In this document: positions 8,470-37,326 of the stretch, piece after piece | Layout: every line of letters begins with the position of its first letter | Numbering within the stretch: position 1 is the first letter of the stretch | DNA from: Escherichia phage phi458 | Strand: one strand, 5' to 3' | Sequence record: OP434518 | DNA: 44,850 nt | The notes under the pieces: model-generated | The model's database searches: none | The model's input: only the letters and a program-made list of their open reading frames with translations | What the model was told of the DNA's origin: nothing | Made by a program: the position numbers and the translations under genes

Positions 8470-8579
8470 CTGGATTCTCCTGTCAGTTAGCTTTGAGTAA
8501 CGCGCCGTGATGCTTATCTCCACGGTTGCTGTCTTGCAGCTGCATTTCGCGCTACTCAAAGCCTTCTGCTTTGAATGCT

Positions 8580-8610
8580 GCCCTTCTTCAGGGCTAAATT
8601 TTTAAGAGCC
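8580..8610 (-). promoter_or_regulatory. nutL (boxA GGCTCTTAA, boxB GCCCTGAAGAAGGGC)
   Basis: On the minus strand boxA-like CTCTTAA precedes the lambda-type boxB hairpin, between pL and N. Confidence 0.8.
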
Positions 8611-8642
8611 TCACCTTCAATGGTGGTCAGTGCGTCCTGCTG

Positions 8643-8679
8643 ATGGCTAAATAGTACGATTTGTACTTTATCGAGTCAA
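8643..8679 (-). promoter_or_regulatory. pL-like promoter with overlapping operator palindrome
   Basis: Minus strand TTGACT-N17-TACTAT; palindrome AGTACgatttGTACT (8653-8667) overlaps the -10 and is unlike lambda OL. Confidence 0.6.
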
Positions 8680-8750
8680 TACAAAATGTTCTAAATATAA
8701 TTAGTTTTTTATAACGCTTTGTATTTAATGGGTTTATATTTTGGAAAAAG

Positions 8751-8775
8751 AAAACCCGGCGCTGAGGCCGGGTTT
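8751..8775 (-). terminator. Intrinsic terminator after the 348-aa immunity-region gene
   Basis: Hairpin CCCGGC-gctgag-GCCGGG flanked by an A-run on one side and T-run on the other. Confidence 0.6.
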
Positions 8776-8783
8776 GGAGTGCA

Positions 8784-9830
8784 TCACTCTGGTTCGCTGG
8801 GGAATATATTTATCAATTGCCCTGTTGAAATGTGCCCATTTTCTACAACCTCTAGGTATGAAATTTCAACAGTTGATTCTTTGGCTACAGCATTCAAAAA
8901 CTCAAGAAGCTCATCAGTAGATGTTATGTCGGCTGAGGTTTTTATGGTGAAAGATTCACCATTTGAAACCCTTATGACGTCAATATTTATGTCCTGATTT
9001 GTTTCTCCCGAGCGACGAACGCCCGTGACATAAAAGTTATCTCTTCTAGTTTCCTTTTTTCGATCAATTGATTGTCTTTGGTTTAAGGTATTTAACTGTT
9101 CTCTATTTACCACTCTCTGACCAATTGTTACCCTCTCAACTGACGAGTCTTGAGCAAGCTTTTTAAGCAACTTGCTTTTACCATCCTCGCCGTGAGCCAG
9201 AACCTCTCTGCTAATGTTTGTTTGACCGCTAATCAACAACTTGAGCACATTGTCTTGTGCTTCGTTTACCGCTTTGGTGCTTTTTTCCACCAATTGCACC
9301 TGAGAATCTTGGTCATGTCGCTGTGTTTCGTAGTACTCATTGATCCACTTATAGCCTACCGTGCTGGCAGCTAAGACGATAGCGGCGACGGCGCATAGTG
9401 CTTGCCTTCCTGTCATTTTGCCTATCGCTTGAGTAAACACTGTCACCACTCCGTTTACAATCGGATCTGAGTCACCATCCGCTTGGCTTGAGCCTTCGCT
9501 TATTCGGTAGACAATATCCAGCAAACCTTTCTCTGCATCTTTTAGCTTCTGCCGATTATGAGTGCTGTGACTGACTACCGTAAATGCTTTTTGTATTTCA
9601 TGCGTAAGCTCTGCCATACCAAAAAGCATTGACGCAGTCAATGAAGAATTATATCTATTTGGATCGCCTTTTACATTAATATTGATCTTTGGCCATCCAC
9701 TGAAAACTACGTTAGGGAATGTGAAGTCGCTTGAGTCGATATCCTTCCTTCCGAGCATTTCTGTTACAAAAGATACAAAGTCGTCTTCTGACTTGATAAC
9801 ATATTGCGCAGGTTGATCAATCGCTGACAT
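8784..9830 (-). CDS. Unrecognised 348-aa protein with central transmembrane segment, in the rexAB position
   Basis: Starts 25 bp after the cI stop on the same strand with an AAGGA RBS; hydrophobic segment ALCAVAAIVLAASTVGYKWI mid-protein; charged, coiled-coil-like C-terminal half; no family recognised. Confidence 0.75.
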   Translation of the reverse strand: MSAIDQPAQYVIKSEDDFVSFVTEMLGRKDIDSSDFTFPNVVFSGWPKININVKGDPNRYNSSLTASMLFGMAELTHEIQKAFTVVSHSTHNRQKLKDAEKGLLDIVYRISEGSSQADGDSDPIVNGVVTVFTQAIGKMTGRQALCAVAAIVLAASTVGYKWINEYYETQRHDQDSQVQLVEKSTKAVNEAQDNVLKLLISGQTNISREVLAHGEDGKSKLLKKLAQDSSVERVTIGQRVVNREQLNTLNQRQSIDRKKETRRDNFYVTGVRRSGETNQDINIDVIRVSNGESFTIKTSADITSTDELLEFLNAVAKESTVEISYLEVVENGHISTGQLINIFPSEPE

Positions 9831-9855
9831 TCTTAATCCTTAACATCCATTCCTA

Positions 9856-10515
9856 TCACCCAAACGTCTCTTCTGGCCACTGGCTGGCGATAACTTTCCC
9901 TACAACGGAACAGCTATCATTGCATGGGATCATTGGATATTGCGGGTTTAGTGGTTGTAGGAACACCTGACCGCTATCCCTGATCAGTTTCTTGAAGGTA
10001 AACTCGTCACCACCAAGTCTGGCTATGCAGAAATCACCTGGCTCAACAGCCTGCTCAGGGTCAACGAGAATTAACATCCCGTCAGGAAAGCTTGGCTTGG
10101 ATCCTGTTGGTGCGGTCATGGAATTACCTTCAACTTCAAGCCAAAACGCACAATCACTGGCTTTTTTGGTTGTGCTGACCCATCTCTCCGCATCACCTTT
10201 GGTAAAGGTTCTAAGCTCAGGCGAGAACATCCCGGCCTGAACATGAGAAAAAACAGGGTACTCATATTGTTTTTTAACGGGGGCAGATGAGTATTCGCCA
10301 ACAGGTGAAAATGTACCGTCGTGGTTGAATGAGACGTTATCAATACCAAGGTATTTAAACACCACACCAATCTCGTCAAGAGATGGATGACGAGATCCGC
10401 GCAACCAGTGACCAATTCCACCCTGCGTCATACCAAGCTCTTCAGCCAACTTCTCTTGAGTTATGCCGAGCTCTTTCATTCTGGATCTAGCCAGTTCATA
10501 CCATTTCATTTTCAT
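9856..10515 (-). CDS. cI: CI-type repressor (novel HTH N-domain, lambda-type LexA-like C-domain)
   Basis: C-terminal ~130 aa from [15 protein letters not shown] to the end match lambda CI as recalled; N-terminal [25 protein letters not shown] is different. Start chosen at MKMKWYEL; the ORF extends to 10590. Confidence 0.85.
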
Positions 10516-10626
10516 ATCCTTATTATTACGCTCTGTACTAAAACCATCCATGCACAAGATGTATTTTTTGTTTGCATTCCAAAAGTACATATCGTATTAT
10601 TGTCTCATGGTTACTATGGAGGGCAT
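10516..10626. promoter_or_regulatory. OR/pR/pRM divergent control region
   Basis: Between divergent cI and cro; candidate pR TTGCAT-N17-TATTAT; repeated AGTAC..GTA half-sites resemble the pL palindrome. Confidence 0.55.
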
Positions 10627-10842
10627 ATGAGCAACCTACGAAAATATCGAGAGTCACTGAATATCTCTCAAACAACACTTGCTAAGGCGGTTGGATGCAC
10701 ACAGGGAGCTATTGGGCATTGGGAATCTGGTCGTCGCTTCCCAGACCTTAAAACATGCCGCGCTCTTGTTGCATGCCTAAACAAGTTAGGCGCAAAAGTC
10801 AGTCTTGATGACGTGTTCCCTCCGGAACACAAAGCCGCTTAA
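10627..10842 (+). CDS. cro: Cro-like HTH repressor (non-lambda)
   Basis: 71 aa, MSNLRKYRESLNISQTTLAKAVGCTQGAIGHWESG; GGAGGG RBS; divergent from cI. Confidence 0.8.
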   Translation: MSNLRKYRESLNISQTTLAKAVGCTQGAIGHWESGRRFPDLKTCRALVACLNKLGAKVSLDDVFPPEHKAA

Positions 10843-10850
10843 GACATTCC

Positions 10851-10882
10851 CGCTCTTACACATTCCAGCCCTGAAAAAGGGC
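10851..10882 (+). promoter_or_regulatory. nutR (boxA CGCTCTTAC, boxB GCCCTGAAAAAGGGC)
   Basis: Lambda-type boxA and boxB hairpin between cro and cII. Confidence 0.85.
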
Positions 10883-10961
10883 ATCAAATTAAACCACACC
10901 TATGGTGTATGCATTTATTTGCATACATTCAATCAATTGTTATCTAAGGAAATACTTACAT

Positions 10962-11255
10962 ATGGTTCGTGCAAACAAACGCAACGAGGCTCTACGAATC
11001 GAGAGTGCGTTGCTTAACAAAATCGCAATGCTTGGAACTGAGAAGACAGCGGAAGCTGTGGGAGTTGATAAGTCGCAGATCAGCAGGTGGAAGAGGGACT
11101 GGATTCCAAAGTTCTCAATGCTGCTTGCTGTTCTTGAATGGGGGGTCGTTGACGACGACATGGCTCGATTGGCGCGACAAGTTGCTGCGATTCTCACCAA
11201 TAAAAAACGCCCGGCGGCAACCGAGCGTTCTGAACAAATCCAGATGGAGTTCTGA
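10962..11255 (+). CDS. cII: CII transcriptional activator
   Basis: MVRANKRNEALRIESALLNKIAMLGTEKTAEAVGVDKSQISRWKRDWIPKF... matches lambda CII; the ORF-track N-terminal extension is rejected. Confidence 0.95.
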   Translation: MVRANKRNEALRIESALLNKIAMLGTEKTAEAVGVDKSQISRWKRDWIPKFSMLLAVLEWGVVDDDMARLARQVAAILTNKKRPAATERSEQIQMEF

Positions 11256-11277
11256 GGTCATTACTGGATCTATCAAC
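11199..11277 (-). ncRNA. oop: oop antisense RNA
   Basis: Minus strand reads GTTGATAGATCCAGTAATGACC...GTTGCCGCCGGGCGTTTTTTATT, matching lambda oop with its terminator, antisense to the cII 3' end. Confidence 0.8.
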
Positions 11278-11287
11278 AGGAGTCATT

Positions 11288-12187
11288 ATGACAAATACAG
11301 CAAAAATACTCAACTTCGGCAGAGGTAACTTTGCCGGACAGGAGCGTAATGTGGCAGATCTCGATGATGGTTACGCCAGACTATCAAATATGCTGCTTGA
11401 GGCTTATTCGGGCGCAGATCTGACCAAGCGACAGTTTAAAGTGCTGCTTGCCATTCTGCGTAAAACCTATGGGTGGAATAAACCAATGGACAGAATCACC
11501 GATTCTCAACTTAGCGAGATTACAAAGTTACCTGTCAAACGGTGCAATGAAGCCAAGTTAGAACTCGTCAGAATGAATATTATCAAGCAGCAAGGCGGCA
11601 TGTTTGGACCAAACAAAAACATCTCAGAATGGTGTATCCCTCAAAACGAGGGAAAATCCCCTAAAACGAGGGATAAAACATCCCTCAAATTGGGGGATTG
11701 CTATCCCTCAAAACAGGGGGACACAAAAGACACTATTACAAAAGAAAAAAGAAAAGATTATTCGTCCGAGAATTCTGGCGAATCCTCTGACCAGCCAGAA
11801 AACGATCTTTCTGTGGTTAAACCGGATGCTGCAATTCAGAGCGGCAGCAAGTGGGGAACAGCAGAAGACCTGACCGCCGCAGAGTGGATGTTTGACATGG
11901 TGAAGACCATCGCGCCATCAGCCAGAAAACCGAATTTTGCTGGGTGGGCTAACGATATCCGCCTGATGCGTGAACGTGACGGACGTAACCACCGCGATAT
12001 GTGTGTGCTTTTCCGCTGGGCCTGCCAGGACAACTTCTGGTCCGGTAACGTGCTGAGTCCGGCCAAACTCCGCGACAAGTGGACCCAGCTCGAAATCAAC
12101 CGTAACAAGCAACAGGCAGGCGTGACAGCCAGCAAACCAAAACTCGACCTGACAAACACTGACTGGATTTACGGGGTGGATTTATGA
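11288..12187 (+). CDS. O: Replication initiator O
   Basis: 299 aa matching lambda O; contains the iteron array. Confidence 0.95.
   Translation: MTNTAKILNFGRGNFAGQERNVADLDDGYARLSNMLLEAYSGADLTKRQFKVLLAILRKTYGWNKPMDRITDSQLSEITKLPVKRCNEAKLELVRMNIIKQQGGMFGPNKNISEWCIPQNEGKSPKTRDKTSLKLGDCYPSKQGDTKDTITKEKRKDYSSENSGESSDQPENDLSVVKPDAAIQSGSKWGTAEDLTAAEWMFDMVKTIAPSARKPNFAGWANDIRLMRERDGRNHRDMCVLFRWACQDNFWSGNVLSPAKLRDKWTQLEINRNKQQAGVTASKPKLDLTNTDWIYGVDL
11636..11765 (+). other. Replication origin (four iterons plus AT-rich region) inside O
   Basis: Four tandem ~18-bp repeats of the TCCCTCAAAACGAGGGA type followed by an A-rich stretch. Confidence 0.85.
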
Positions 12188-12885
12188 AAAACATCGCCGC
12201 ACAGATGGTTAACTTTGACCGTGAGCAGATGCGTCGGATCGCCAACAACATGCCGGAACAGTACGACGAAAAGCCGCAGGTACAACAGGTAGCGCAGATC
12301 ATCAATGGTGTGTTCAGCCAGTTACTGGCAACTTTCCCGGCGAGCCTGGCTAACCGGGACCAGAACGAACTGAACGAAATCCGCCGCCAGTGGGTGCTGG
12401 CTTTCCGGGAAAACGGGATCACCACAATGGAACAGGTTAACGCAGGAATGCGCGTAGCCCGTCGGCAGAATCGACCATTTCTGCCATCACCCGGGCAGTT
12501 TGTTGCATGGTGCCGGGAAGAAGCATCCGTTATCGCCGGACTGCCAAACGTCAGCGAGCTGGTTGATATGGTTTACGAGTATTGCCGGAAGCGAGGCCTG
12601 TATCCGGATGCGGAGTCTTATCCGTGGAAATCAAACGCGCACTACTGGCTGGTTACCAACCTGTATCAGAACATGCGGGCCAATGCGCTTACTGATGCGG
12701 AATTACGCCGTAAGGCCGCAGATGAGCTTGTCCATATGACTGCGAGAATTAACCATGGTGAGGCGATCCCTGAACCAGTAAAACAACTTCCTGTCATGGG
12801 CGGTAGACCTCTAAATCGTGCACAGGCTCTGGCGAAGATCGCAGAAATCAAAGCTAAGTTCGGACTGAAAGGAGCAAGTGTATGA
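12184..12885 (+). CDS. P: Replication protein P (DnaB loader)
   Basis: 233 aa matching lambda P. Confidence 0.95.
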   Translation: MKNIAAQMVNFDREQMRRIANNMPEQYDEKPQVQQVAQIINGVFSQLLATFPASLANRDQNELNEIRRQWVLAFRENGITTMEQVNAGMRVARRQNRPFLPSPGQFVAWCREEASVIAGLPNVSELVDMVYEYCRKRGLYPDAESYPWKSNAHYWLVTNLYQNMRANALTDAELRRKAADELVHMTARINHGEAIPEPVKQLPVMGGRPLNRAQALAKIAEIKAKFGLKGASV

Positions 12886-13172
12886 CGGGCAAAGAGGCAA
12901 TTATTCATTACCTGGGGACGCATAATAGCTTCTGTGCGCCGGACGTTGCCGCGCTAACAGGCGCAACAGTAACCAGCATAAATCAGGCCGCGGCTAAAAT
13001 GGCACGGGCAGGTCTTCTGGTTATCGAAGGTAAGGTCTGGCGAACGGTGTATTACCGGTTTGCTACCAGGGAAGAACGGGAAGGAAAGATGAGCACGAAC
13101 CTGATTTTTAAGGAGTGTCGCCAGAGTGCCGCGATGAAACGGGTATTGGCGGTATATGGAGTTAAAAGATGA
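12882..13172 (+). CDS. ren: Ren
   Basis: 96 aa matching lambda Ren. Confidence 0.85.
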   Translation: MTGKEAIIHYLGTHNSFCAPDVAALTGATVTSINQAAAKMARAGLLVIEGKVWRTVYYRFATREEREGKMSTNLIFKECRQSAAMKRVLAVYGVKR

Positions 13173-13197
13173 CCATCTACATCACTGAGCTAATAAC

Positions 13198-13228
13198 AGG
13201 CCTGCTGGTAATCGCAGGCCTTTTTATT
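13198..13228 (+). terminator. tR2-like intrinsic terminator before the nin region
   Basis: Hairpin AGGCCTGC-tggtaatc-GCAGGCCT followed by a T-run. Confidence 0.6.
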
Positions 13229-13245
13229 TGGGGGAGAGGGAAGTC

Positions 13246-13686
13246 ATGAAAAAACTAACCTTTGAAATTCGATCTCCAGCACATCAGCAAAACGCTATTC
13301 ACGCGGTACAGCAAATTCTTCCAGACCCAACCAAACCAATCGTAGTAACCATTCAGGAACGCAACCGCAGCTTAGACCAGAATCGAAAGCTTTGGGCTTG
13401 CCTTGGTGACGTCTCTCGTCAGGTTGAATGGCATGGTCGCTGGCTGGATGCAGAAAGCTGGAAGTGTGTGTTTACCGCAGCATTAAAGCAGCAGGATGTT
13501 GTTCCTAACCTTGCCGGGAATGGCTTTGTGGTAATAGGCCAGTCAACCAGCAGGATGCGTGTAAGCGAATTTGCGGAGCTATTAGAGCTTATACAGGCAT
13601 TCGGTACAGAGCGTGGCGTTAAGTGGTCGGACGAAGCGCGACTGGCTCTCGAATGGAAAGCGCGATGGGGAGACAGGGCGGCATGA
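13246..13686 (+). CDS. ninB: NinB (Orf recombination mediator)
   Basis: [55 protein letters not shown]... matches lambda NinB; GGGAGAGGG RBS. Confidence 0.9.
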
Positions 13687-15874: not shown

Positions 15875-15949
15875 GGGTCAGTCGCATAAAGGTCATTACG
15901 GAAGGCTGTTAACCTTCTTATCGTGGTTCGAGTCCACGCTGTCCCGCCA
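15875..15949 (+). tRNA. tRNA-like element with GTT (Asn-type) anticodon arm and degenerate D-arm; possible pseudo-tRNA
   Basis: Good anticodon stem GAAGG/CCTTC with loop CTGTTAA, T-arm CGTGG-TTCGAGT-CCACG, acceptor GGGTCAG/CTGTCCC with one mismatch, CCA end; D-stem pairs poorly. Confidence 0.4.
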
Positions 15950-15954
15950 AATAT

Positions 15955-16030
15955 GCTGGTTTAGCTCCAATGGTAGAGCAGTCGCCTTGTAAGCGAATGG
16001 GTAGCGGTTCAAGTCCGTTAACCAGCACCA
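15955..16030 (+). tRNA. Phage tRNA, anticodon TGT by hand folding (Thr-type)
   Basis: 76 nt; perfect 7-bp acceptor stem GCTGGTT/AACCAGC, D-stem GCTC/GAGC, anticodon loop CTTGTAA, T-loop TTCAAGT, CCA end. Confidence 0.7.
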
Positions 16031-24858: not shown

Positions 24859-25126
24859 TCCCTTTTCCCGGCTGGCAGCGCGTATGGATGCTATCACGGT
24901 CAGAAAGATGGGAAAGACAGCCTCGATTAATGATGTCGATATGACTGTGATCCCGGGAGAAACACTGGCAGAGCTGAATGCTCTGTCCGGACCTGCGGTC
25001 TCTCTGGTGGTGTTTTCTTCGGGATACCGCCCACGGCGCGGTGATCGCGTTGTTTATGACGGACAACAATGGACGGTCACACGGCATGAACGCTTTAACG
25101 GTAAGCCAATGATCTTTATTGAGTAA
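24851..25126 (+). CDS. Head-tail connector/adaptor protein (putative)
   Basis: 91-aa ORF between head and tail modules; assignment by position. Confidence 0.5.
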   Translation: MSDPFSRLAARMDAITVRKMGKTASINDVDMTVIPGETLAELNALSGPAVSLVVFSSGYRPRRGDRVVYDGQQWTVTRHERFNGKPMIFIE

Positions 25127-25137
25127 AGAGGTGTGGG

Positions 25138-25716
25138 ATGAAGGGGCTTGAGAATGCCATCCGCAATCTGAACAGCCTTGATACCCGTATGGTGCCACAG
25201 GCCAGCGCATGGGCGATAAACCGTGTGGCACAGAAAGCGGTCTCGGTTGCCACCCGGCAGGTTGCCGGGAATACCGTTGCGGGAGATAACCAGGTGAAAG
25301 GGATCCCCCTGAAACTGGTACGTCAGCGTGTCCGGGTGTTTAAAGCCAGTCCGTCAGGAAAAATGACGGCCAGGATCCGCGTTAACCGGGGCAATCTGCC
25401 TGCCATTAAGCTGGGGACAGCCCGGGTCAGACTGGCCCGGCGTGGTGGAAAACTGCAGTACCGTGGCAGTGTGCTGAAGGTGGGTAAATATCTTTTCCGG
25501 GATGCGTTTATTCAGCAACTGGCGAATGGTCGCTGGCATGTGATGCGGCGTATTGATGGCAAAAATCGTTACCCCATTGATGTGGTGAAAATCCCGCTGT
25601 CCGGACCGCTGACACAGACATTTGAAGATGCCCGCGACCGCATCATTGCTGCGGAAATGCCGAAACAGCTGGGGTATGCACTGAAACAACAACTGAGGTT
25701 ATGGCTGACCCGATGA
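25138..25716 (+). CDS. Z: Tail completion protein Z
   Basis: 192 aa, same length and position as lambda Z, followed by U and V homologues. Confidence 0.7.
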   Translation: MKGLENAIRNLNSLDTRMVPQASAWAINRVAQKAVSVATRQVAGNTVAGDNQVKGIPLKLVRQRVRVFKASPSGKMTARIRVNRGNLPAIKLGTARVRLARRGGKLQYRGSVLKVGKYLFRDAFIQQLANGRWHVMRRIDGKNRYPIDVVKIPLSGPLTQTFEDARDRIIAAEMPKQLGYALKQQLRLWLTR

Positions 25717-26114
25717 ACCGACATACACAAATCCGCCAGGTCGTACTGGCACGCCTTCGGGAACAGTGTGGAGACAGCGCCACGTTTTTTGACGGGCTTC
25801 CGGCATTTGTTGATGCGCAGGAACTGCCTGCCGTGGCGGTGTGGCTGAGTGATGCTCAGTACACCGGAAAAATGACGGATGAAGATGACTGGCAGGCTGT
25901 TCTGCATATTGCTGTCTTCATCCGGGCACAGGCACCGGATTCAGAGCTGGATATGTGGATGGAGAGCACCATTTTCCCGGCCCTGAATGATGTACCAGCA
26001 CTTTCCGGACTCATCGACACCCTGATCCCACTCGGTTTTAACTATCAACGTGATAATGAGATGGCCACCTGGGCGATGGCGGAAATCACGTACCAGATCA
26101 CGTACACGAATTAA
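25701..26114 (+). CDS. U: Tail terminator protein U
   Basis: Similar to lambda U: ATFFDG...PAVAVWL...YTG, HI.VF..AQ.PDSELD.WMES. Confidence 0.8.
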   Translation: MADPMNRHTQIRQVVLARLREQCGDSATFFDGLPAFVDAQELPAVAVWLSDAQYTGKMTDEDDWQAVLHIAVFIRAQAPDSELDMWMESTIFPALNDVPALSGLIDTLIPLGFNYQRDNEMATWAMAEITYQITYTN

Positions 26115-26124
26115 GGAGGTGGTA

Positions 26125-26868
26125 ATGACCACACCAAATCCACTGGCAAAAACGAAAGGTGCGGGAACGACGTTCTGGATGTATACCGGCAAGGGCGATG
26201 CGTTTGCGAACCCTTTATCGGACACTGACTGGCTGCGTCTTGCGATGGTGAAGGATCTGCAACCTGGCGAAATGACCGCTGATGCAGAAGATGACACTTA
26301 TCTCGATGATGAAGATGCAGACTGGAAAACGACAACCCAGGGGCAGAAATCAGTCGGTGATACTTCGGCGACGCTGGCCTGGCGTCCGGGGGACAGCGGG
26401 CAGAAAAAACTGGTTCAGTTGTTCGACTCCGGTGAAGTCTGCGCTTTTCGTATCAAATATCCCAACGGTACTGTTGATGTTTTCCGTGGCTGGCTGAGTT
26501 CACTGGGTAAAACCATTGCCTCAAAAGACGTGATGACCCGCACAGTGAAAATCAGCGGTGTGGGGCGTCCGTATCTGGCAGAGGAAGGCACTGAAATCGT
26601 GGGCGTTACCGGGCTGACGGTGGCACCGGCATCTGCCAGTGTAAAAGTGGGAGCAACCACCACGCTGACCTTTACAGTAAAACCTGACGGAGCCAGTGAC
26701 AAAGCGATCAGTGTGCATTCGACAGATCCACAGACTGCCACGGTGACCCTGAACGGGCTTGTGGCCACGGTGAAAGGCGTGAAGCAGGGCAGTGTCAGCA
26801 TTGTGGGCATGACTTCTGACGGCGATTTTGTGGCAGTGGCTACGGTGGCTGTCAGCGCCGCAGGTTAA
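26125..26868 (+). CDS. V: Major tail protein V
   Basis: MTTPNPLAKTKGAGTTFWMYTG... closely resembles lambda V; strong AAGGAGGTGG RBS; terminator follows. Confidence 0.9.
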   Translation: MTTPNPLAKTKGAGTTFWMYTGKGDAFANPLSDTDWLRLAMVKDLQPGEMTADAEDDTYLDDEDADWKTTTQGQKSVGDTSATLAWRPGDSGQKKLVQLFDSGEVCAFRIKYPNGTVDVFRGWLSSLGKTIASKDVMTRTVKISGVGRPYLAEEGTEIVGVTGLTVAPASASVKVGATTTLTFTVKPDGASDKAISVHSTDPQTATVTLNGLVATVKGVKQGSVSIVGMTSDGDFVAVATVAVSAAG

Positions 26869-26889
26869 CAGGACGATACTCATCATTTG

Positions 26890-26913
26890 CCCCGGTTATC
26901 CGGGGCTTTTTTG
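26890..26913 (+). terminator. Intrinsic terminator after V
   Basis: CCCCGG-ttat-CCGGGG followed by CTTTTTT. Confidence 0.6.
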
Positions 26914-26925
26914 CAGGTGGAGAAC

Positions 26926-27315
26926 ATGATGTTTCTGAAACAGGGCACGTTTAATTATGAAAAGCAGTCCGTGGTGCTCAGTGAGCTGTCCGGGCTGCAG
27001 AGAATTGAATATCTGGCGTTTGTTCAGCAGCGAACGGCAAAGTTTGATGCCGAAGAGGGAGAACTGCCGGAGGCTGAACGACAGATTGCTTTTCTACGGA
27101 TGGGGATGGATATCAATGCCTGGCTGGTTTCCCGCTCACTGTGGAATGCGGAACAGTCTCAGGATGTTGAGACGCTTTGCGCATCCGTTATTACAACATG
27201 GTCGTATGATGCCCTGGGAGCGGGGGCGGAGATGGTTCTGTCGCTGAGCGGTATGGGAGCCATTGAGAATGCCGGGGATTTGGAGCATGAGGTGCTGACG
27301 CCGGAAAAGTCCTGA
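26926..27315 (+). CDS. G: Tail assembly chaperone G
   Basis: MMFLKQGTFNYEKQSVVLSELSGLQRIEYLAF... resembles lambda G; ATG start chosen over the track's TTG. Confidence 0.85.
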   Translation: MMFLKQGTFNYEKQSVVLSELSGLQRIEYLAFVQQRTAKFDAEEGELPEAERQIAFLRMGMDINAWLVSRSLWNAEQSQDVETLCASVITTWSYDALGAGAEMVLSLSGMGAIENAGDLEHEVLTPEKS

Positions 27316-27653
27316 CGCGGGAAATGCAGTTTGTCATGCGGCTTGCCCGGGAGTTCAGGCGGGCAGACTGGCGGCGGATGCTGTCGGAAATGTCGGCCAC
27401 TGAGCTTGGTGAGTGGGGCGATTATTTCCGGATGCAGAGCTTCAGTGATGTGTGGATGGATGCGCAGTTTGCCTCGCTGAAGGCATTGATCGTGAGAATG
27501 GTGTCCGGCAGCAGTGATGCTGCGGTGGCTGATTTCAGCCTTTTACCGGAAGAGAACGGGATACCGGAGCGAACGGACGAAGAACTGATGCATCTTGGGG
27601 AAGGTATTTCCGGAGGTGTGCGTTATGGACCAGATAGCCAACCTGGTCATTGA
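27303..27653 (+). CDS. T: T portion of the G-T tail assembly chaperone, reached by -1 programmed frameshift
   Basis: The -1 frame is open from the G 3' end; slip-prone GGAAAAG at 27303-27309 just before the G stop; product continues ...REMQFVMRLAREF. Confidence 0.7.
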   Translation, partial: GKVLTREMQFVMRLAREFRRADWRRMLSEMSATELGEWGDYFRMQSFSDVWMDAQFASLKALIVRMVSGSSDAAVADFSLLPEENGIPERTDEELMHLGEGISGGVRYGPDSQPGH

Positions 27654-30600
27654 TTTGGGGATTGATGCGGCAGAGTTTAAAAATGAAATTCCCCGTATCA
27701 AAAACCTTCTGAATGGTGCAGCCAGCGATGCAGAACGGTCTTCTGCCCGTATGCAGCGTTTTATGGAGCGTCAGACTCAGGCCGCCCGGCAGACAACGCA
27801 GGCGGCTTCTTCGGCTGCAACAGCCGCATCCGTCCATGCGCAGACGGTGGAGAAGAACGCACAGGCTCATGAACGCATGGCCCGCGAGGTGGAGAAAACC
27901 CGCCAGCGCATGGAGGCGCTGAGCCAGAAAATGCGCGAGGAACAGGCGCAGGCCATGGCTCTGGCGGAGGCTCAGGATAAAGCGGCTGCTGCGTTTTATC
28001 GTCAGATTGACAGTGTGAAACAGGCCAGTGCGGGGCTGCAGGAATTACAGCGTATTCAGCAGCAGATCCGACAGGCCAGAAACAGTGGCGGGATTGGTCA
28101 GCAGGATTATCTGGCGCTGATTTCTGAGGTTACTGCGAAAACCCGTGTTCTTACACAGGCTGAGGAAGAGGCTACCCGACAGAAAGTGGCGTTTATCCGT
28201 CAGCTTAAAGAGCAGGCAACCCGCCAGAATCTTTCATCTTCTGAGTTGCTTCGTGCCAAGGCAGCCCAGCTGGGGGTAAGCAGTGCTGCAGAAGTGTATA
28301 TCCGCAAAATGGAGCAGGCAGGAAAAGCCACGCATTCGCTGGGTCTGAAAAGTGCAGCAGCCCGCCAGGAGATAGGCGTTCTGATAGGTGAACTGGCCCG
28401 CGGCAATTTAGGGGCGCTGAGGGGATCCGGGATAACGCTGGCTAACCGTGCCGGATGGATAGACACACTGATGTCACCGAAAGGCATGATGCTTGGCGGG
28501 GTTATTGGCGGTATTGCCGCGGCCGTCTATGGTCTAGGTAAAGCCTGGTATGACGGTCAGAAGGAGGGGGAAGAATTTAACCGCCAGTTGTCGCTGACGG
28601 GGCATTATGCCGGAGTCACTGCCGGGCAGCTGTGGACGCTCAGTCGTGCTATTTCCGGGAATGGTATCACGCAACATGCTGCAGCCGGTGCGTTGGCGCA
28701 GGTGGTGGGGAGTGGTGCATTTCGTGGAAACGATATCGGTATGGTGGCGAGAGCTGCCGCACAGATGGAGCGATCGGTTGGCCAGTCGGTCAGCGATACC
28801 ATAAATCAGTTTAAGCGGCTGAAGGATGATCCTGTAAATGCCGCGAAGGCTCTGGACAATGAGCTGCATTTTCTTACTGCCACTCAGCTTGAGCAGATAC
28901 GTGTCCTTGGGGATCAGGGACGGTCCAGTGATGCTGCACGGATAGCCATGTCTGCACTGGCAGAGGAAACCGGTCGGCGTACTGCGGATATTGATAATAA
29001 CCTCAATGCGCTTGGCAGTACGCTGAAGTATCTGTCTGATTTGTGGAGTCGTTTCTGGGATGCGGCCATGAATATTGGTCGTGAAGACTCGCTGGATGAA
29101 CAGATTACCGCTTTACAGGAGAAAGTGTCGCGGGCGAAAAGACTCCCCTGGACGGCATCATCTTCTCAGGTTGAATACGATCAGCAGCGTCTTAACGATC
29201 TTCAGGAGAAAAAACGCCAGAAGGATTTGCAGGATGCAAAAGAGCAGGCAGAGCGGAATTATCAGGAGCAACAGAAACGACGTAATGCTGAAAATGCTGC
29301 ACTGAACCGGATGAATGAAACGGAAGCAGCACGACATCAGCGTGAAATTGCGCGTATTAATGCCATGCAGTACGCCGACCAGGCTGTCAGGGATGCGGCG
29401 ATACAACGTGAAAATGAACGTTACGAGAAAGCCCTGGCATCCGGTAAGAAAAAAACACGCGAAACCCGTAATGATGAGGCCACCCGGTTATTGCTGCAGT
29501 ACAGTCAGCAACAGGCACAGGTGGAAGGACAGATTGCTGCTGCAAGACAGTCAGCAGGCATTGCCACTGAAAAGATGACAGAAGCGCATAAACAGCTTCT
29601 GGCTCTGCAGCAGCGCATCAGCGATCTGGACGGGAAAAAACTGACGGCAGATGAAAAGAGTGTGCTGGCCCGTAAAGATGAACTGATTCAGGCACTGACG
29701 CTGCTGGATGTAAAACAGCAGGAGCTTCAGAAACAAACGGCACTCAACGATCTGAAGAAAAAAACAATTCAGCTGACCAGTCAACTGGCTGAAGAAGAGC
29801 GCGCTCAGCGTCAGCAACATGACCTGGATATCGCCACGGTGGGTATGGGTGATCAGCAGCGGCAGCGATATCAGGTACAACTGAGTCTTCGCCAGAAATA
29901 CCAGCAACAGCTGGAGCAGTTGAGGCGGGATAGTGAGCAGAAAGGGACATATAACACGGATGACTACAGAAAGGCCGAGCAGGCGCTGACGGAGAGCCTG
30001 AACCGACAACTGAATGAGAATCGCCGTTACTGGCAACAGCTTGAAGTTGTGCAGGGTAACTGGAAAAACGGTGCCATGCGTGCATTTCAGGATTTTACCG
30101 TGGATGCAGACAATACGGCAGGCACTGCTGAGCAGATGCTTACAGCGGCATTTAACAGTGCAGGTAATGCACTGGCAACCTTCTGTACCACCGGAAAACT
30201 GAACTTCAAATCTTTTACCGCCTCGCTCCTTTCTGATCTGGCAAAAATCATGGCCCAGATGTCCATGATGCAGGCAGTTAAGGGGATTGGTTCGGCGTTT
30301 GGCTGGGGGAGTGCAGCAACTGCCAGTGTGACGCCCAATGCTGATGGTGGTGTTTATCAGTCTGCTGATTTGAGTCGTTACAGTGGCACGGTGGTTAACC
30401 GTCCGACGTTTTTTGCTTTTGCAAAAGGTGCAGGTGTGATGGGGGAAGCTGGGCCTGAAGCCATTCTGCCTCTGCGTCGTGGTGCTGACGGTAAGCTGGG
30501 GGTTGTGGCGGATATTGGTGGTTCAGGTATGGCGATGTTTGCCCCGCAGTACAACATTGAGATCAATAACGATGGCACGAACGGGCAGATAGGTCCGGCT

Positions 30601-30699
30601 GCCCTGAAGGTGGTTTATGACCTCGGGAAAAAAGCAGCAGCGGACTTTATGCAACAGCAGTCCCGTGATGGTGGTCTGTTCTCCGGAGGTGGACGATGA
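27625..30699 (+). CDS. H: Tail tape measure protein H
   Basis: About 1000 aa, coiled-coil rich; N- and C-termini (INNDGTNGQIGPAALKVVYDL...DGGLFSGGGR) resemble lambda H. Confidence 0.9.
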   Translation: MDQIANLVIDLGIDAAEFKNEIPRIKNLLNGAASDAERSSARMQRFMERQTQAARQTTQAASSAATAASVHAQTVEKNAQAHERMAREVEKTRQRMEALSQKMREEQAQAMALAEAQDKAAAAFYRQIDSVKQASAGLQELQRIQQQIRQARNSGGIGQQDYLALISEVTAKTRVLTQAEEEATRQKVAFIRQLKEQATRQNLSSSELLRAKAAQLGVSSAAEVYIRKMEQAGKATHSLGLKSAAARQEIGVLIGELARGNLGALRGSGITLANRAGWIDTLMSPKGMMLGGVIGGIAAAVYGLGKAWYDGQKEGEEFNRQLSLTGHYAGVTAGQLWTLSRAISGNGITQHAAAGALAQVVGSGAFRGNDIGMVARAAAQMERSVGQSVSDTINQFKRLKDDPVNAAKALDNELHFLTATQLEQIRVLGDQGRSSDAARIAMSALAEETGRRTADIDNNLNALGSTLKYLSDLWSRFWDAAMNIGREDSLDEQITALQEKVSRAKRLPWTASSSQVEYDQQRLNDLQEKKRQKDLQDAKEQAERNYQEQQKRRNAENAALNRMNETEAARHQREIARINAMQYADQAVRDAAIQRENERYEKALASGKKKTRETRNDEATRLLLQYSQQQAQVEGQIAAARQSAGIATEKMTEAHKQLLALQQRISDLDGKKLTADEKSVLARKDELIQALTLLDVKQQELQKQTALNDLKKKTIQLTSQLAEEERAQRQQHDLDIATVGMGDQQRQRYQVQLSLRQKYQQQLEQLRRDSEQKGTYNTDDYRKAEQALTESLNRQLNENRRYWQQLEVVQGNWKNGAMRAFQDFTVDADNTAGTAEQMLTAAFNSAGNALATFCTTGKLNFKSFTASLLSDLAKIMAQMSMMQAVKGIGSAFGWGSAATASVTPNADGGVYQSADLSRYSGTVVNRPTFFAFAKGAGVMGEAGPEAILPLRRGADGKLGVVADIGGSGMAMFAPQYNIEINNDGTNGQIGPAALKVVYDLGKKAAADFMQQQSRDGGLFSGGGR

Positions 30700-31025
30700 A
30701 AACCTTCCGCTGGAAAGTGAAACCCGGTATGGATGTGGCTTCGGCCCCTTCCGTAAGAAAGGTGCGCTTTGGTGATGGCTATTCCCAGCGAGCGCCTGCC
30801 GGGCTGAATGCCGACCTGAAAACGTACAGCGTGACGCTTTCTGTTCCCCGTTGGGAGGCCACGGCGCTTGAGTCGTTTCTGGCTGAGCACGGGGGCTGGA
30901 AATCCTTTCTGTGGACGCCGCCTTATGAGTGGCGGCAGATAAAGGTGACCTGCGCAAAATGGTCGTCGCGTGTCAGTATGCTGCGTGTTGAGTTCAGCGC
31001 AGAGTTTGAACAGGTGGTGAACTGA
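30696..31025 (+). CDS. M: Tail tip protein M
   Basis: 109 aa, lambda M length and position. Confidence 0.85.
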   Translation: MKTFRWKVKPGMDVASAPSVRKVRFGDGYSQRAPAGLNADLKTYSVTLSVPRWEATALESFLAEHGGWKSFLWTPPYEWRQIKVTCAKWSSRVSMLRVEFSAEFEQVVN

Positions 31026-31723
31026 TGCAGGATATCCGGCAGGAAACACTGAATGAATGCACCCGTGCGGAGCAGTCGGCCAGCGTGGTGCTCTGGGAAA
31101 TCGACCTGACAGAGGTCGGTGGAGAACGTTATTTTTTCTGTAATGAGCTGAACGAAAAAGGTGAGCCGGTCACCTGGCAGGGGCGACAGTATCAGCCGTA
31201 TCCCATTCAGGGGAGTGGTTTTGAACTGAATGGCAAAGGCACCAGTACGCGCCCCACGCTGACGGTTTCTAACCTGTACGGTATGGTCACCGGGATGGCG
31301 GAAGATCTGCAGAGTCTGGTCGGCGGAACGGTGGTCCGGCGTAAGGTTTACGCCCGTTTTCTGGATGCGGTGAACTTCGTTAACGGAAACAGTGACGCCG
31401 ATCCGGAGCAGGAGGTGATCAGCCGCTGGCGCATCGAGCAGTGCAGCGAACTGAGCGCGGTGAGTGCCTCCTTTGTACTGTCCACGCCGACGGAAACAGA
31501 TGGCGCTGTTTTTCCGGGACGTATCATGCTGGCCAACACCTGCACCTGGACCTATCGCGGCGATGAGTGCGGTTATCACGGTCCGGCGGTCGCGGATGAA
31601 TATGACCAGACAACGTCCGATATCACGAAGGATAAATGCAGCAAATGCCTGAGTGGCTGTAAGTTCCGCAATAATGTCGGCAACTTTGGCGGCTTCCTTT
31701 CCATTAACAAACTTTCGCAGTAA
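31025..31723 (+). CDS. L: Tail tip protein L
   Basis: 232 aa, MQDIRQETLNECTRAEQSASVVLWEIDL... matches lambda L. Confidence 0.9.
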   Translation: MQDIRQETLNECTRAEQSASVVLWEIDLTEVGGERYFFCNELNEKGEPVTWQGRQYQPYPIQGSGFELNGKGTSTRPTLTVSNLYGMVTGMAEDLQSLVGGTVVRRKVYARFLDAVNFVNGNSDADPEQEVISRWRIEQCSELSAVSASFVLSTPTETDGAVFPGRIMLANTCTWTYRGDECGYHGPAVADEYDQTTSDITKDKCSKCLSGCKFRNNVGNFGGFLSINKLSQ

Positions 31724-31728
31724 ATCCC

Positions 31729-32472
31729 ATGACAGAGACAGAATCAGCGATTCTGGCGCACGCCCGGCGATGTGCGCCAGCGGAGTCGTGCGGCTTCGTG
31801 GTGAGAACGCCGGACGGGGAAAGATATTTTCCCTGCGTGAATATCTCCGGTGAGCCGGAGGCGTATTTCCGGATGTCGCCGGAGGACTGGCTGCGGGCAG
31901 AGATGCAGGGTGAGATTGTGGCGCTGGTCCACAGCCACCCAGGTGGTCTGCCCTGGCTGAGTGAGGCTGACCGGCGGCTGCAGGTGCAGAGTGATTTGCC
32001 GTGGTGGCTGGTCTGCCGGGGGACGATTCATAAGTTCCGCTGTGTGCCGCATCTCACCGGGCGGCGCTTTGAACACGGGGTGACGGACTGTTACACGCTA
32101 TTCCGGGATGCTTATCATCTGGCGGGGATTGAGATGCCGGATTTTCATCGCGAGGATGACTGGTGGCGTCACGGTCAGAATCTCTATCTGGATAATCTGG
32201 AGGCCACAGGGCTGTATCAGGTGCCGTTGTCATCAGCACAACCGGGCGATGTGCTGCTGTGCTGTTTTGGTTCATCGGTGCCGAATCATGCCGCCATTTA
32301 CTGTGGTGATGGCGAGCTGCTGCACCATATTCCTGAACAACTGAGCAAACGAGAGAGGTATACCGACAAATGGCAGCGACGCACACACTCCCTCTGGCGT
32401 CACCGGGCATGGCACGCATCTGCCTTTACGGGGATTTACAACGATTTGGCCGCCGCATCGACCTTCGTGTGA
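31729..32472 (+). CDS. K: Tail tip assembly protein K
   Basis: Conserved Cys/His pattern; position as lambda K. Confidence 0.8.
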   Translation: MTETESAILAHARRCAPAESCGFVVRTPDGERYFPCVNISGEPEAYFRMSPEDWLRAEMQGEIVALVHSHPGGLPWLSEADRRLQVQSDLPWWLVCRGTIHKFRCVPHLTGRRFEHGVTDCYTLFRDAYHLAGIEMPDFHREDDWWRHGQNLYLDNLEATGLYQVPLSSAQPGDVLLCCFGSSVPNHAAIYCGDGELLHHIPEQLSKRERYTDKWQRRTHSLWRHRAWHASAFTGIYNDLAAASTFV

Positions 32473-33041
32473 AAACGGGGGCTGAAGCCATCCGGGCGCT
32501 GGCCACACAGCTCCCGGCGTTTCGTCAGAAACTGAGCGACGGCTGGTATCAGGTACGGATTGCCGGGCAGGATGTCAGCACGTCCGGATTAACGGCGCAG
32601 TTACATGAGGCCCTGCCTGATGGCGCTGTGATTCATATTGTTCCCAGAGTCGCCGGGGCCAAGTCAGGTGGCGTATTCCAGATTGTTCTGGGGGCTGCCG
32701 CCATTGCCGGATCATTCTTTACTGCCGGAGCCACCCTTGCAGCATGGGGGGCAGCCATTGGGGCCGGTGGTATGACCGGCATCCTGTTTTCTCTCGGTGC
32801 CAGTATGGTGCTTGGCGGTGTGGCCCAGATGCTGGCCCCTAAACCCAGAACTCTCCGTACACAGACAACGGATAACGGTAAGCAGAACACGTATTTCTCG
32901 TCACTGGACAACATGGTTGCCCAGGGCAATGTTCTGCCTGTTCTGTACGGTGAAATGCGCGTGGGGTCACGTGTTGTCTCTCAGGAGATTAGCACGGCAG
33001 ACGAGGGGGACGGTGGTCAGGTTGTGGTGATTGGTCGTTGA
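32370..33041 (+). CDS. I: Tail tip assembly protein I
   Basis: 223 aa, overlaps the K 3' end as in lambda; Gly/Ala-rich hydrophobic C-terminus. Confidence 0.85.
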   Translation: MAATHTLPLASPGMARICLYGDLQRFGRRIDLRVKTGAEAIRALATQLPAFRQKLSDGWYQVRIAGQDVSTSGLTAQLHEALPDGAVIHIVPRVAGAKSGGVFQIVLGAAAIAGSFFTAGATLAAWGAAIGAGGMTGILFSLGASMVLGGVAQMLAPKPRTLRTQTTDNGKQNTYFSSLDNMVAQGNVLPVLYGEMRVGSRVVSQEISTADEGDGGQVVVIGR

Positions 33042-33058
33042 TGAAAAACGTTTTATGT

Positions 33059-33083
33059 GAAACCGCCTCAGGGCGGTTTTGTC
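33059..33083 (+). terminator. Hairpin and T-run between I and J
   Basis: AACCGCC-tcag-GGCGGTT followed by TTGTCGTTT. Confidence 0.45.
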
Positions 33084-33101
33084 GTTTCTGGAGCGAGAGG
33101 A

Positions 33102-36100
33102 ATGGGTAAAGGCAGCAGTAAGGGGCATACCCCGCGCGAAGCGAAGGACAACCTGAAATCATCCCAGATGCTGAGCGTGATAGACGCCATCAGCGAAGGG
33201 CCGGTTGAAGGTCCGGTGGATGGATTAAAAAGCGTGCTGCTGAACAGTACACCGGTGCTGGACAGTGAGGGGAATACCAACATCTCCGGTGTCACGGTGG
33301 TGTTCCGTGCCGGTGAGCAGGAGCAGACACCGCCGGAGGGGTTTGAATCCTCCGGCTCCGAGACGGTGCTGGGTACGGAAGTGAAATATGACACGCCGAT
33401 CACCCGCACCATTACGTCTGCAAACATCGACCGTCTGCGCTTTACCTTCGGTGTGCAGGCACTGGTGGAAACCACCTCAAAGGGGGACCGGAATCCATCG
33501 GAAGTCCGCCTGCTGGTTCAGATACAACGTAACGGTGGCTGGGTGACGGAAAAGGACATCACCATTAAGGGCAAAACCACCTCGCAGTATCTGGCCTCGG
33601 TGGTGGTGGATAACCTGCCGCCGCGCCCGTTCAGTATCCGGATGCGCAGAATGACGCCGGACAGCACCACAGACCAGTTGCAGAACAAAACGCTCTGGTC
33701 GTCATACACCGAAATTATCGATGTGAAACAGGGCTACCCGAACACGGCACTGGTCGGCGTACAGGTGGATTCGGAGCAGTTCGGCAGCCAGCAGGTGAGC
33801 CGTAATTATCATCTTCGCGGGCGCATTCTGCAGGTGCCGTCGAACTATAACCCGCAGACGCGACAATACAGCGGTATTTGGGACGGAACGTTAAAACCAG
33901 CATACAGCAACAACATGGCCTGGTGTCTGTGGGATATGCTGACCCACCCGCGCTACGGCATGGGGAAACGTCTTGGTGCGGCAGATGTGGATAAATGGGC
34001 GCTGTATGTCATCGGCCAGTACTGCGACCAGTCAGTGCCGGACGGTTTTGGCGGCACGGAGCCGCGCATCACCTGTAATGCGTACCTGACCACACAGCGC
34101 AAGGCGTGGGATGTGCTCAGTGATTTCTGCTCGGCGATGCGCTGTATGCCGGTATGGAACGGGCAGACGCTGACGTTCGTGCAGGACCGACCGTCGGATA
34201 AGGTGTGGACCTATAACCGCAGTAATGTGGTGATGCCGGATGATGGCGCGCCGTTCCGCTACAGCTTCAGCGCCCTGAAGGACCGCCATAATGCCGTTGA
34301 GGTGAACTGGATTGACCCGGATAACGGCTGGGAGACGGCGACAGAGCTTGTGGAGGACACGCAGGCCATTGCCCGTTACGGTCGTAACGTCACGAAGATG
34401 GATGCTTTTGGCTGTACCAGCCGGGGGCAGGCACACCGCGCCGGGCTGTGGCTGATTAAAACGGAGCTGCTGGAAACGCAGACCGTGGACTTCAGCGTGG
34501 GCACAGAAGGGCTTCGCCATGTACCGGGCGATGTCATTGAAATCTGCGATGATGACTATGCGGGCATCAGCACCGGTGGGCGCGTGCTGGCGGTGAACAG
34601 CCAGACGCGGACACTGACGCTCGACCGTGAAATCACGCTGCCAGCCTCCGGCACCACGCTGATAAGTCTGGTTGACGGGCAGGGGAGTCCGGTCAGCGTG
34701 GAGGTTCAGTCCGTCACCGACGGCGTGAAGGTAAAAGTGAGCCGGGTTCCTGACGGTGTTGCTGAATACAGCGTGTGGGGGCTGAAGCTGCCGACGCTGC
34801 GCCAGCGCCTGTTCCGCTGCGTGAGTATCCGTGAGAACGACGACGGCACGTATGCCATCACTGCCGTGCAGCATGTGCCGGAGAAAGAGGCCATCGTGGA
34901 TAACGGGGCGCACTTTGACGGTGACCAGAGCGGCACGGTGAATGGTGTCACGCCGCCAGCAGTGCAGCATCTGACCGCCGAAGTCACTGCAGACAGCGGG
35001 GAATATCAGGTGCTGGCGCGATGGGACACGCCGAAGGTGGTGAAGGGTGTGAGCTTTATGCTTCGCCTGACTGTGGCAGCAGACGACGGCAGTGAGCGGC
35101 TGGTCAGCACGGCCCGGACGACGGAAACCACATACCGCTTCACGCAACTGGCGCCAGGGAACTACAGGCTGACAGTCCGGGCGGTAAATGCGTGGGGGCA
35201 GCAGGGCGATCCGGCATCGGTATCGTTCCGGATTGCCGCACCGGCAGCACCGTCGCGGATTGAGCTGACGCCGGGCTATTTTCAGATAACCGCAACGCCG
35301 CATCTTGCCGTTTATGATCCGACGGTACAGTTTGAGTTCTGGTTCTCGGAAAAGCGGATTGCGGATATCAGGCAGGTTGAAACCACAGCCCGCTATCTTG
35401 GTACGGCGCTGTACTGGATAGCTGCCAGTATCAATATCAAACCGGGCCATGATTATTACTTTTATATCCGCAGTGTGAACACCGTTGGCAAATCGGCATT
35501 CGTGGAGGCTGTTGGTCAGCCGAGTGATGATGCATCCGGTTATCTGGATTTTTTCAAAGGCGAGATAGGGAAAACCCATCTGGCTCAGGAGCTGTGGACG
35601 CAGATTGATAACGGTCAGCTTGCGCCTGACCTGGCTGAAATCAGGACGTCCATTACGGATGTCAGCAATGAAATCACGCAGACCGTCAATAAGAAACTGG
35701 AAGACCAGAGTGCGGCAATTCAGCAGATACAGAAGGTTCAGGTTGATACAAATAATAACCTGAACAGCATGTGGGCTGTGAAGCTGCAGCAGATGCAGGA
35801 CGGACGCCTTTATATCGCGGGTATTGGTGCCGGTATTGAGAACACCCCTGACGGCATGCAGAGTCAGGTGCTGCTGGCGGCGGACAGGATTGCGATGGTT
35901 AATCCTGCGAATGGCAACACAAAACCGATGTTTGTTGGTCAGGGCGATCAGATATTCATGAACGACGTGTTCCTGAAACGCCTGACGGCCCCCACCATTA
36001 CCAGCGGTGGAAATCCACCGGCATTTTCCCTGACACCGGACGGAAAGCTGACCGCTAAAAATGCGGATATCAGTGGCAGTGTGAATGCGAACGCCGGGAC

Positions 36101-36599
36101 GCTCAACAATGTCACGGTAAATGAAAACTGTACGATTAAGGGCATGCTGGAGGCGACTCAGGTCAGAGGTGACTTCGTTAAAGCTGTATCCAAATCATTT
36201 CCGAAACAGGCTGGTACGTGGGGTAACACGGAAACACCAAACGGGACGGTTACAGTCACCATCAGCGATGATCATAACTTTGACCGTCAGATTATTATTC
36301 CGCCCATTATCTTTAACGGAATAGCGTATAGCGATCCGGGAAGTGGTAATAACCCGGGAGGTACAAGATACACGGGTTATGGTTTTGAAGTTCGCAAAAA
36401 CGGTGTATTAATCGCATCCAGAGAAACTAAAGGGGCCATTCCCGGTAGCTACAGTGCGGTTATTGATATGCCGAGTGGCAGGGGAAGCGTCACTCTGGAG
36501 TTTAAGGTTTTCCATAAAGGCAATCAGCGGGCAGGTAATATCACCGACTGTACGGTGATTGTGACCAAAAAAGCCGCTTCCGGCATCAGTATTCGTTGA
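33102..36599 (+). CDS. J: Central tail fibre / tip attachment protein J
   Basis: Starts [20 protein letters not shown] as lambda J; about 1165 aa; C-terminal ~150 aa not recognised as lambda. Confidence 0.9.
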
Positions 36600-36668
36600 A
36601 ATTGTTATAACCCATATAAGGGCACCAGAAATGGTGCCTTTTTTATTGCAGAAAAGCGAGAGGTAATT

Positions 36669-37268: not shown

Positions 37269-37326
37269 TTAGCCAGGTAACACAGTGTTATGACAGCCCG
37301 CCGGTTCAGGCGGGCTTTTTTGTGGG

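Follow-up and report, generated by a model that had tools for sequence, protein, structure and literature searches.

We analysed the immunity region in the prophage DNA of Escherichia phage phi458 (OP434518, 44,850 nt); this whole stretch is called the window, and all coordinates refer to it. The region holds a cI repressor gene, a divergent cro gene, three predicted operators between the two (OR) and three more at OL, a terminator (t_imm) and a gene for a 348-aa protein, all of them between nutL and nutR (Table 1).

Table 1. Features of the phi458 immunity region, with positions in the window
Feature	Position	Strand	Basis or remark
nutL region, boxB hairpin 8580-8594	8557..8645	-	96.6% lambda; left cassette boundary ~8645
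Putative PL, TTGACT-17-TACTAT	8651..8679	-	Overlaps OL1 and OL2
OL1, TAGTACGATTTGTACTT	8652..8668		Perfect AGTAC-N5-GTACT
OL2, CAATACAAAATGTTCTA	8677..8693		AGTAC-N5-GTACT type
OL3, TATAACGCTTTGTATTT	8710..8726		AGTAC-N5-GTACT type
t_imm intrinsic terminator, end of cI operon	8752..8775	-	Hairpin; lambda match
348-aa gene, function unknown (RefSeq hypothetical protein WP_001272876.1)	8784..9830	-	Between cI and t_imm; rexA/rexB slot of lambda
cI repressor gene	9856..10515	-	ORF call, Pfam and VT2-Sakai comparison
cI lambda-type C-terminal module, lambda residues 101-236 and stop	9856..10266	-	134/136 aa, 94.4% nt against lambda
cI N-terminal HTH_3 DNA-binding domain and linker, VT2-Sakai type	10267..10515	-	78/81 aa against VT2-Sakai cI
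Putative PRM	10522..10550	-	VT2-Sakai annotation transferred via operator alignment
OR3, TATTACGCTCTGTACTA	10524..10540		Overlaps putative PRM -10; counterpart annotated in AP005153 and AP000422
OR2, ATGCACAAGATGTATTT	10550..10566		Adjoins putative PRM -35
Putative PR, TTTGCA-18-TATTAT (or TTGCAT-17-TATTAT)	10571..10600	+	Overlaps OR1; position as in VT2-Sakai annotation
OR1, AAGTACATATCGTATTA	10583..10599		Overlaps PR spacer and -10
cro, 71 aa, HTH_3	10627..10842	+	Pfam; 71/71 against VT2-Sakai Cro
nutR, boxA CGCTCTTA, boxB GCCCTGAAAAAGGGC	10851..10882	+	Lambda identity resumes; right cassette boundary ~10849

The cI repressor and its operators

The longest open reading frame of cI covers 9856-10590 on the minus strand, a call that is over-extended because it crosses OR. 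The start is likely ATG 10515 (219 aa) or ATG 10509 (217 aa), the latter being the start annotated for VT2-Sakai cI. Pfam places an HTH_3 domain at residues 11-58 (E 8e-11), within the N-terminal 83 aa, and a Peptidase_S24 domain in the C-terminal part (E 9e-29). A structure-sequence match and a codon-by-codon comparison show that the protein equals lambda cI at 134 of 136 residues from Tyr101 to Gly236, the only differences being S139C and E217D (lambda numbering). Because the difference is confined to these two residues, the Ala111-Gly112 cleavage site, the Ser149/Lys192 dyad and the dimerisation and cooperativity surfaces are all those of lambda. The repressor is thereby of the self-cleaving LexA/lambda-cI (S24) type, with an HTH_3 domain and a Peptidase_S24 domain that carries the Ala-Gly site and the Ser/Lys dyad. 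An earlier note on this DNA, made from the letters alone, had called the C-terminal domain essentially lambda's, as it is; the residue which it placed before the shared stretch is Q and not E.

The likeness stops abruptly. The C-terminal module differs from lambda at 23 of 411 nucleotides, and only 2 of the 23 changes alter an amino acid. BLASTN against lambda aligns 9842-10266 at 93.6% and breaks off at 10266/10267, within a few bases, and finds nothing over the N-terminal part of cI, OR and cro until 10849. An alignment with lambda cI, which the earlier note had proposed for locating the junction, puts it at codon 100/101. At the protein level a relationship persists across the break, the helix-turn-helix sharing 12 of 26 residues with that of lambda (BLASTP E 1e-7) and the N-terminal domain matching the lambda structure 1lli by phmmer (E 7e-4). 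On these matches the domain is a distant homologue of lambda's with the same predicted fold. Thus the description of the N-terminal HTH, cro and operators as unrelated to lambda stands at the nucleotide level, where there is no similarity, and is slightly too strong for the protein.

The six predicted 17-bp operators fit (T/A)A(G/A)TAC-N5-GTA(C/T)T(T/A), with AC at positions 5-6 in all 12 half-sites. They are unlike the lambda type, and are of the AGTAC..GTACT type that had been noticed from the sequence. The records of the Stx1 phage and of VT2-Sakai annotate operators, labelled "putative", at positions equivalent to all six. Allowing up to 2 mismatches, AGTAC-N5-GTACT is not enriched in the window as a whole (12 matches against 8.9 expected), although 4 of the 12 matches fall within the two short control regions. 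As the motif count is not enriched, support for the operators comes from clustering, positional equivalence and conservation. Compared with VT2-Sakai, 2 of 60 half-site positions are altered, against 38 of 105 elsewhere in OL and OR, the 105 including ~10 end-gap columns (Fisher P 4e-7). An inverted-repeat finder returned nothing useful in OR because the sites there are imperfect palindromes.

Measured from centre to centre, the OL sites lie 25 and 33 bp apart and the OR sites 26 and 33 bp, wider than the 20-24 bp of lambda. These spacings are unlike lambda's, and any pairing pattern for cooperativity is therefore tentative. PRM is predicted to start at or next to the first ATG of cI, which would make the cI mRNA nearly leaderless, as in lambda. 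Cro has no Pfam match to the lambda Cro family. It belongs to the HTH_3 class, is 35% identical to the N-terminal domain of cI, of which it is a paralogue, and does not have the lambda Cro fold; a Cro that is a repressor-domain paralogue is the layout of 434 and P22.

Immunity type

Over cI-OR-cro, phi458 is 92.9% identical in nucleotides to the Stx1 phage and Stx2 phage II (Morioka V526), Nil2, 2851 and the PA series, and 97.8-98.2% identical to the isolates Dewey, Louie, vB_EcoP-683R2 and vB_EcoP-720R6. The N-terminal 83 residues of cI are 96.4% identical to those of VT2-Sakai (Sp5, the Stx2 phage of O157:H7 Sakai), and the three differences, at residues 45, 46 and 59, all lie outside TQGGIGHW, which we take to be the recognition helix. 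The DNA-binding domain (78 of 81 residues), Cro (71 of 71) and the three OL and three OR sites agree with the VT2-Sakai type. Likewise, the whole of cI is identical at 210 of 217 residues, with no difference in TQGGIGHW; the half-sites of the six operators are kept, and so is the layout OL ... cI-OR-cro. By sequence, the immunity of phi458 is the VT2-Sakai (Sp5) / Stx2 phage II / Stx1 phage / Nil2 / 2851 type, which is already known, and which corresponds to CI2c and Cro4 of Smith et al.

The earlier note had proposed a new immunity specificity on a lambda backbone. The VT2-Sakai type has instead been in GenBank for more than two decades with its six operators annotated, and it is published. 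A match to a well-known immunity type with a different operator consensus had been named as what would speak against the proposal; a well-known type was matched, but its operator consensus is the same as that inferred in the note. Of 5,426 complete E. coli genomes, 776 carry the specificity segment (10267-10842), at 802 places in all; the figure is biased upwards by a collection rich in O157:H7. The protein cluster that contains phi458 cI has 1,686 member sequences. Few lambdoid immunities are commoner than the VT2-Sakai type in sequenced E. coli.

Other types were considered. The lambda immunity was rejected since BLASTN gave no match to lambda OL (2592-2652 of the lambda stretch compared, L001), to OR or cro (4952-5242 of L001) or to the N-terminal half of cI. 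The 434 and P22 immunities were rejected on marginal phmmer matches against the PDB (434 repressor, E 0.27; P22 c2, E 0.37-0.47). Phage 21 and HK022 are absent among the N-terminal-domain matches listed. The nearest other N-terminal class, at ~54%, is that of epsilon34 and of the c2 repressors of the Salmonella phages g341c, SPN9CC and L/ST64T. It shows a modular pattern like that of phi458; at ~54% a different specificity is expected, and its hosts and phage types differ from those of phi458.

These relationships fit published comparisons. In Smith et al. 2012, the CI2a variant (lambda) and the CI2c variants are identical at the carboxy terminus, and the amino terminus of CI2c is unique, implying different DNA binding (PMC3430580). 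Villafane et al. 2008 described for epsilon34 a C-terminal domain ~80% lambda and an N-terminal domain ~50% identical to those of L, VT2-Sa and Nil2, and proposed the operator WTACRAWWTGTAT (PMC2629481). Llarena et al. 2022 defined a Clade I holding the Stx-phage CI proteins closest to lambda's, with 61% overall identity (PMC8951638); judged by overall identity to lambda cI, the phi458 type probably belongs there. As cited in PMC10742460, Fattah et al. 2000 found high C-terminal and low N-terminal homology between the CI proteins of VT2-Sa and lambda, and also cross-immunity between the two phages. Sedhom and Solomon 2023 reported that lambda CI binds VT2-Sa operators at the micromolar level (PMC10742460). 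From our comparisons, phi458 should be homoimmune with Stx phages of the VT2-Sakai type and should differ from lambda in operator specificity. If the cross-immunity cited from Fattah et al. is correct, "heteroimmune with lambda" is not strictly true. The literature searched gave no report of experiments on binding, immunity or cleavage for this repressor.

Differences from the Stx phages lie in the divergence of the cassette (~7% of nucleotides), in the gene between cI and t_imm, which is a different one (348 aa) in phi458, and in the backbone. That of phi458 resembles lambda's (N, cII, O, P and ren of lambda type; long tail), whereas the Stx phages are short-tailed, and no stx was seen in the compared parts of phi458. 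Dewey is closer, with a cI identical at 216 of 217 residues. Its group (Dewey, Louie, 683R2 and 720R6) is 97% identical over OL and the N region and has a lambda-like nutR and cII. Dewey lacks the gene between cI and t_imm, so that cI abuts t_imm, and its replication genes differ from those of phi458. Lambda cI itself (PDB 3bdn, 1f39 and 2ho0) shares residues 101-236 with phi458, and lambda has the same switch architecture of three operators per side.

Origin of the cassette and of the two-module repressor

Sequence close to that of lambda brackets the immunity region. To the right, the stretch 10849-13602, with cII, O, P and ren, has 98.5% identity, in agreement with the earlier note, which had called cII, O and P lambda-like; to the left, N and the region beyond it are 98.6-98.7% identical. 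BLASTN gave no lambda match at 8646-8746, 8775-9841 or 10267-10848, and the only lambda islands within the cassette are 28 nt at t_imm and the C-terminal module of cI. The cassette limits are the classical bounds of the imm434 and imm21 substitutions.

We read the region as a complete VT2-Sakai/Sp5 immunity cassette (OL, t_imm, accessory gene, cI, OR and cro) flanked by the nutL and nutR sites of a long-tailed E. coli prophage that otherwise resembles lambda, where it would form a lambda-style switch by homology (probability about 0.9). In such a bistable switch cI dimers would bind the 17-bp AGTAC-N5-GTACT operators through the HTH_3 domain, and would do so cooperatively through the C-terminal domain that is nearly identical to lambda's. 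The bound repressor would shut off PR via OR1 and PL via OL1 and OL2, and would regulate PRM via OR2 and OR3. Given the near-identity to the lambda module, RecA-stimulated self-cleavage at the Ala-Gly site by the Ser/Lys dyad is expected to inactivate cI and release repression, and Cro may compete with cI for the same operators.

The earlier note placed a recombination junction inside cI and held that it had produced the immunity on a lambda backbone. A recent crossover within the gene, between a lambda phage and a foreign phage, would create a new hybrid repressor with a new immunity; it is consistent with the abrupt breakpoint at 10266/10267 and with the lambda-like backbone found to the left and to the right of the immunity region. 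The C-terminal module, however, differs from lambda at 23 of 411 positions (94.4% identity), whereas the flank differs at 40 of 2754 (98.5%; Fisher P 1.4e-6). The other side of the module is bounded by DNA that is not lambda's (8775-9841, left of cI), and its closest relative is the Dewey/Louie/683R2/720R6 cassette (97.6-99.6%). As the module is more diverged than the flank and has non-lambda DNA next to it, it does not come from the phi458 backbone. Furthermore, the breakpoint at codon 100/101 lies at the same base in phi458, Dewey, the Stx1 phage and VT2-Sakai, and is therefore older than their divergence; 776 of 5,426 E. coli genomes carry the segment, and the type has already been described (PMC3430580). 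We consider a recent crossover inside cI extremely unlikely. According to these comparisons the C-terminal module most likely arrived with the cassette, as a block between nutL and nutR. The junction inside cI thus exists, but it is old, is common to all members compared and is not the origin of the phi458 immunity.

An exchange might be dispensed with altogether if the repressor had descended vertically, its DNA-binding domain changing fast under selection while purifying selection held the C-terminal domain. The surviving homology of the helix-turn-helix to lambda's (12 of 26) accords with such descent, and so does a partial co-variation of N- and C-terminal identities across the family (P0002-P0007). 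Selection on the protein, however, cannot keep silent sites in one half only, and the silent sites of the C-terminal part are near those of lambda (2 of 23 changes non-synonymous) while the DNA directly upstream is unalignable. The same C-terminal module is also found on at least four N-terminal classes, and the VT2-type N-terminal domain on distant C-terminal modules. Descent of this kind is very improbable.

The evidence for modularity comes from a survey of protein clusters built at 90% identity, limited to the 120 that match phi458 cI best. The C-terminal module is at least 79% identical to that of phi458 in 56 of them, and these 56 divide by N-terminal domain into VT2-type (7), epsilon34-like (13), lambda-type (12), HTH_19-type (16) and other (8, each below 60% to any representative). 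Conversely, the VT2-type N-terminal domain is joined to C-terminal modules 51-65% identical in 10 clusters, one a partial sequence. When representatives of four N-terminal classes are aligned, homology converges at Y-E-Y-P. The pattern suggests that the two-module cI reflects an old exchange at the linker (lambda Tyr101), with the module joined to at least four DNA-binding classes across the Enterobacteriaceae. In one E. coli repressor (P0103, 214 aa), which has an HTH_19-type N-terminal domain, identity to lambda in the C-terminal part begins only at about residue 141, the cleavage-site region having diverged; this points to a second recombination breakpoint within cI-type genes.

Which partner received the graft is a separate matter. 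Lambda may be the grafted one, the C-terminal module being native to the VT2-Sakai/epsilon34-like family and the lambda N-terminal domain and operators having been joined to it. VT2-type and epsilon34-like N-terminal domains do occur with this C-terminal clade in graded divergence (99/99, 85/85 and 52/83), and the C-terminal alleles of phi458/Dewey, VT2/Stx1 and lambda are roughly equidistant (91-94% of nucleotides). Yet there are 12 clusters that pair a lambda-type N-terminal domain with a C-terminal module of 82-87% identity. Both pairings are therefore old, and either partner may be the recombinant; lambda as the recipient is possible, though doubtful.

Many E. coli prophages are defective, and the cassette could be the decayed remnant of a cryptic prophage with no working switch. 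Nothing specific favours this, and cI, cro, the six operators, PR, PL, t_imm, nutL and nutR are all intact; Cro equals that of VT2-Sakai, and phage isolates whose genome records are complete carry a cassette 98% identical to this one. Decay is accordingly a highly improbable account. With a VT2-Sakai/Sp5 cassette on a lambda-like backbone, phi458 cI is a clean textbook case of modular repressor evolution, in which interchangeable DNA-binding domains meet a conserved cleavage/oligomerisation module at the linker and a whole nutL-to-nutR cassette moves between backbones. As a discovery its importance is low, the repressor type, the operators and the relation to lambda cI being already in GenBank and the literature.

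Co-resident repressors and accessory genes

The lambda-type C-terminal module of cI has 1,427 occurrences spread over 1,206 E. coli genomes, against 802 places in 776 genomes for the VT2-type N-terminal segment. It follows from the former count that ~200 genomes carry two or three copies of the module. By these counts the N-terminal type of phi458 is rarely duplicated, and repressors that share the module within one genome appear mostly to carry different DNA-binding domains. E. coli O157:H7 H2495 has two module places, and the one examined is a true lambda-type cI. This near-lambda cI (NZ_CP038342.1 4414619-4415332, 237 aa) lies with a lambda-type Cro and cII and adjoins a truncated integrase and a frameshifted replication gene. 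Co-residence of module-sharing repressors is evidently tolerated.

We tentatively suggest, as a possibility that we hold rather doubtful, that the repressors of heteroimmune co-resident prophages form mixed dimers or mixed cooperative tetramers. Such complexes could tie the switches of these prophages together, by way of partial cross-immunity, negative dominance or co-induction. They might explain the cross-immunity between lambda and VT2-Sa, as cited from Fattah et al., better than a weak affinity of lambda cI for foreign operators would. If repressors do interact in polylysogens such as O157:H7, this would matter for how stably Stx prophages are kept and how they are induced.

The 348-aa gene occupies the rexA/rexB slot of lambda and is therefore presumably expressed in the lysogen. 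Its product matched nothing in Pfam or PADLOC, and in PHROGs it hit one family alone, phrog_6191, whose function is unknown. Across Enterobacterales the protein has 56 homologues, all unnamed, which occupy other prophage accessory slots, by tail fibre/DinI or by the integrase. The AlphaFold model is poor (pLDDT 62.6, pTM 0.31), with a confident C-terminal beta-barrel; Foldseek against the PDB gave nothing under E 0.01, only small OB-like barrels matching the C-terminal part. The gene is no more than a candidate exclusion or defence gene. The 28-nt island at t_imm (8747-8774) matches, at 100%, the lambda sequence that directly follows rexB, and it is also present in Dewey. With non-lambda DNA on both sides, the island resembles a conserved joint between exchangeable modules.

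Outside the immunity region the backbone is mosaic, so that more separates the window from lambda than an exchanged immunity region. The left end (1-1772) resembles Shigella phage SfI in its integrase region, whereas the tail genes (within 25001-38600) resemble those of mEp460, Ayreon and cdtI phages at ~95-96%. In Stx phages, tRNA genes and stx are located downstream of Q and upstream of the holin gene. Two tRNA genes on the plus strand, tRNA-Asn (GTT, 15875-15949) and tRNA-Thr (TGT, 15955-16030), lie between the Q antiterminator gene and the holin gene of phi458.
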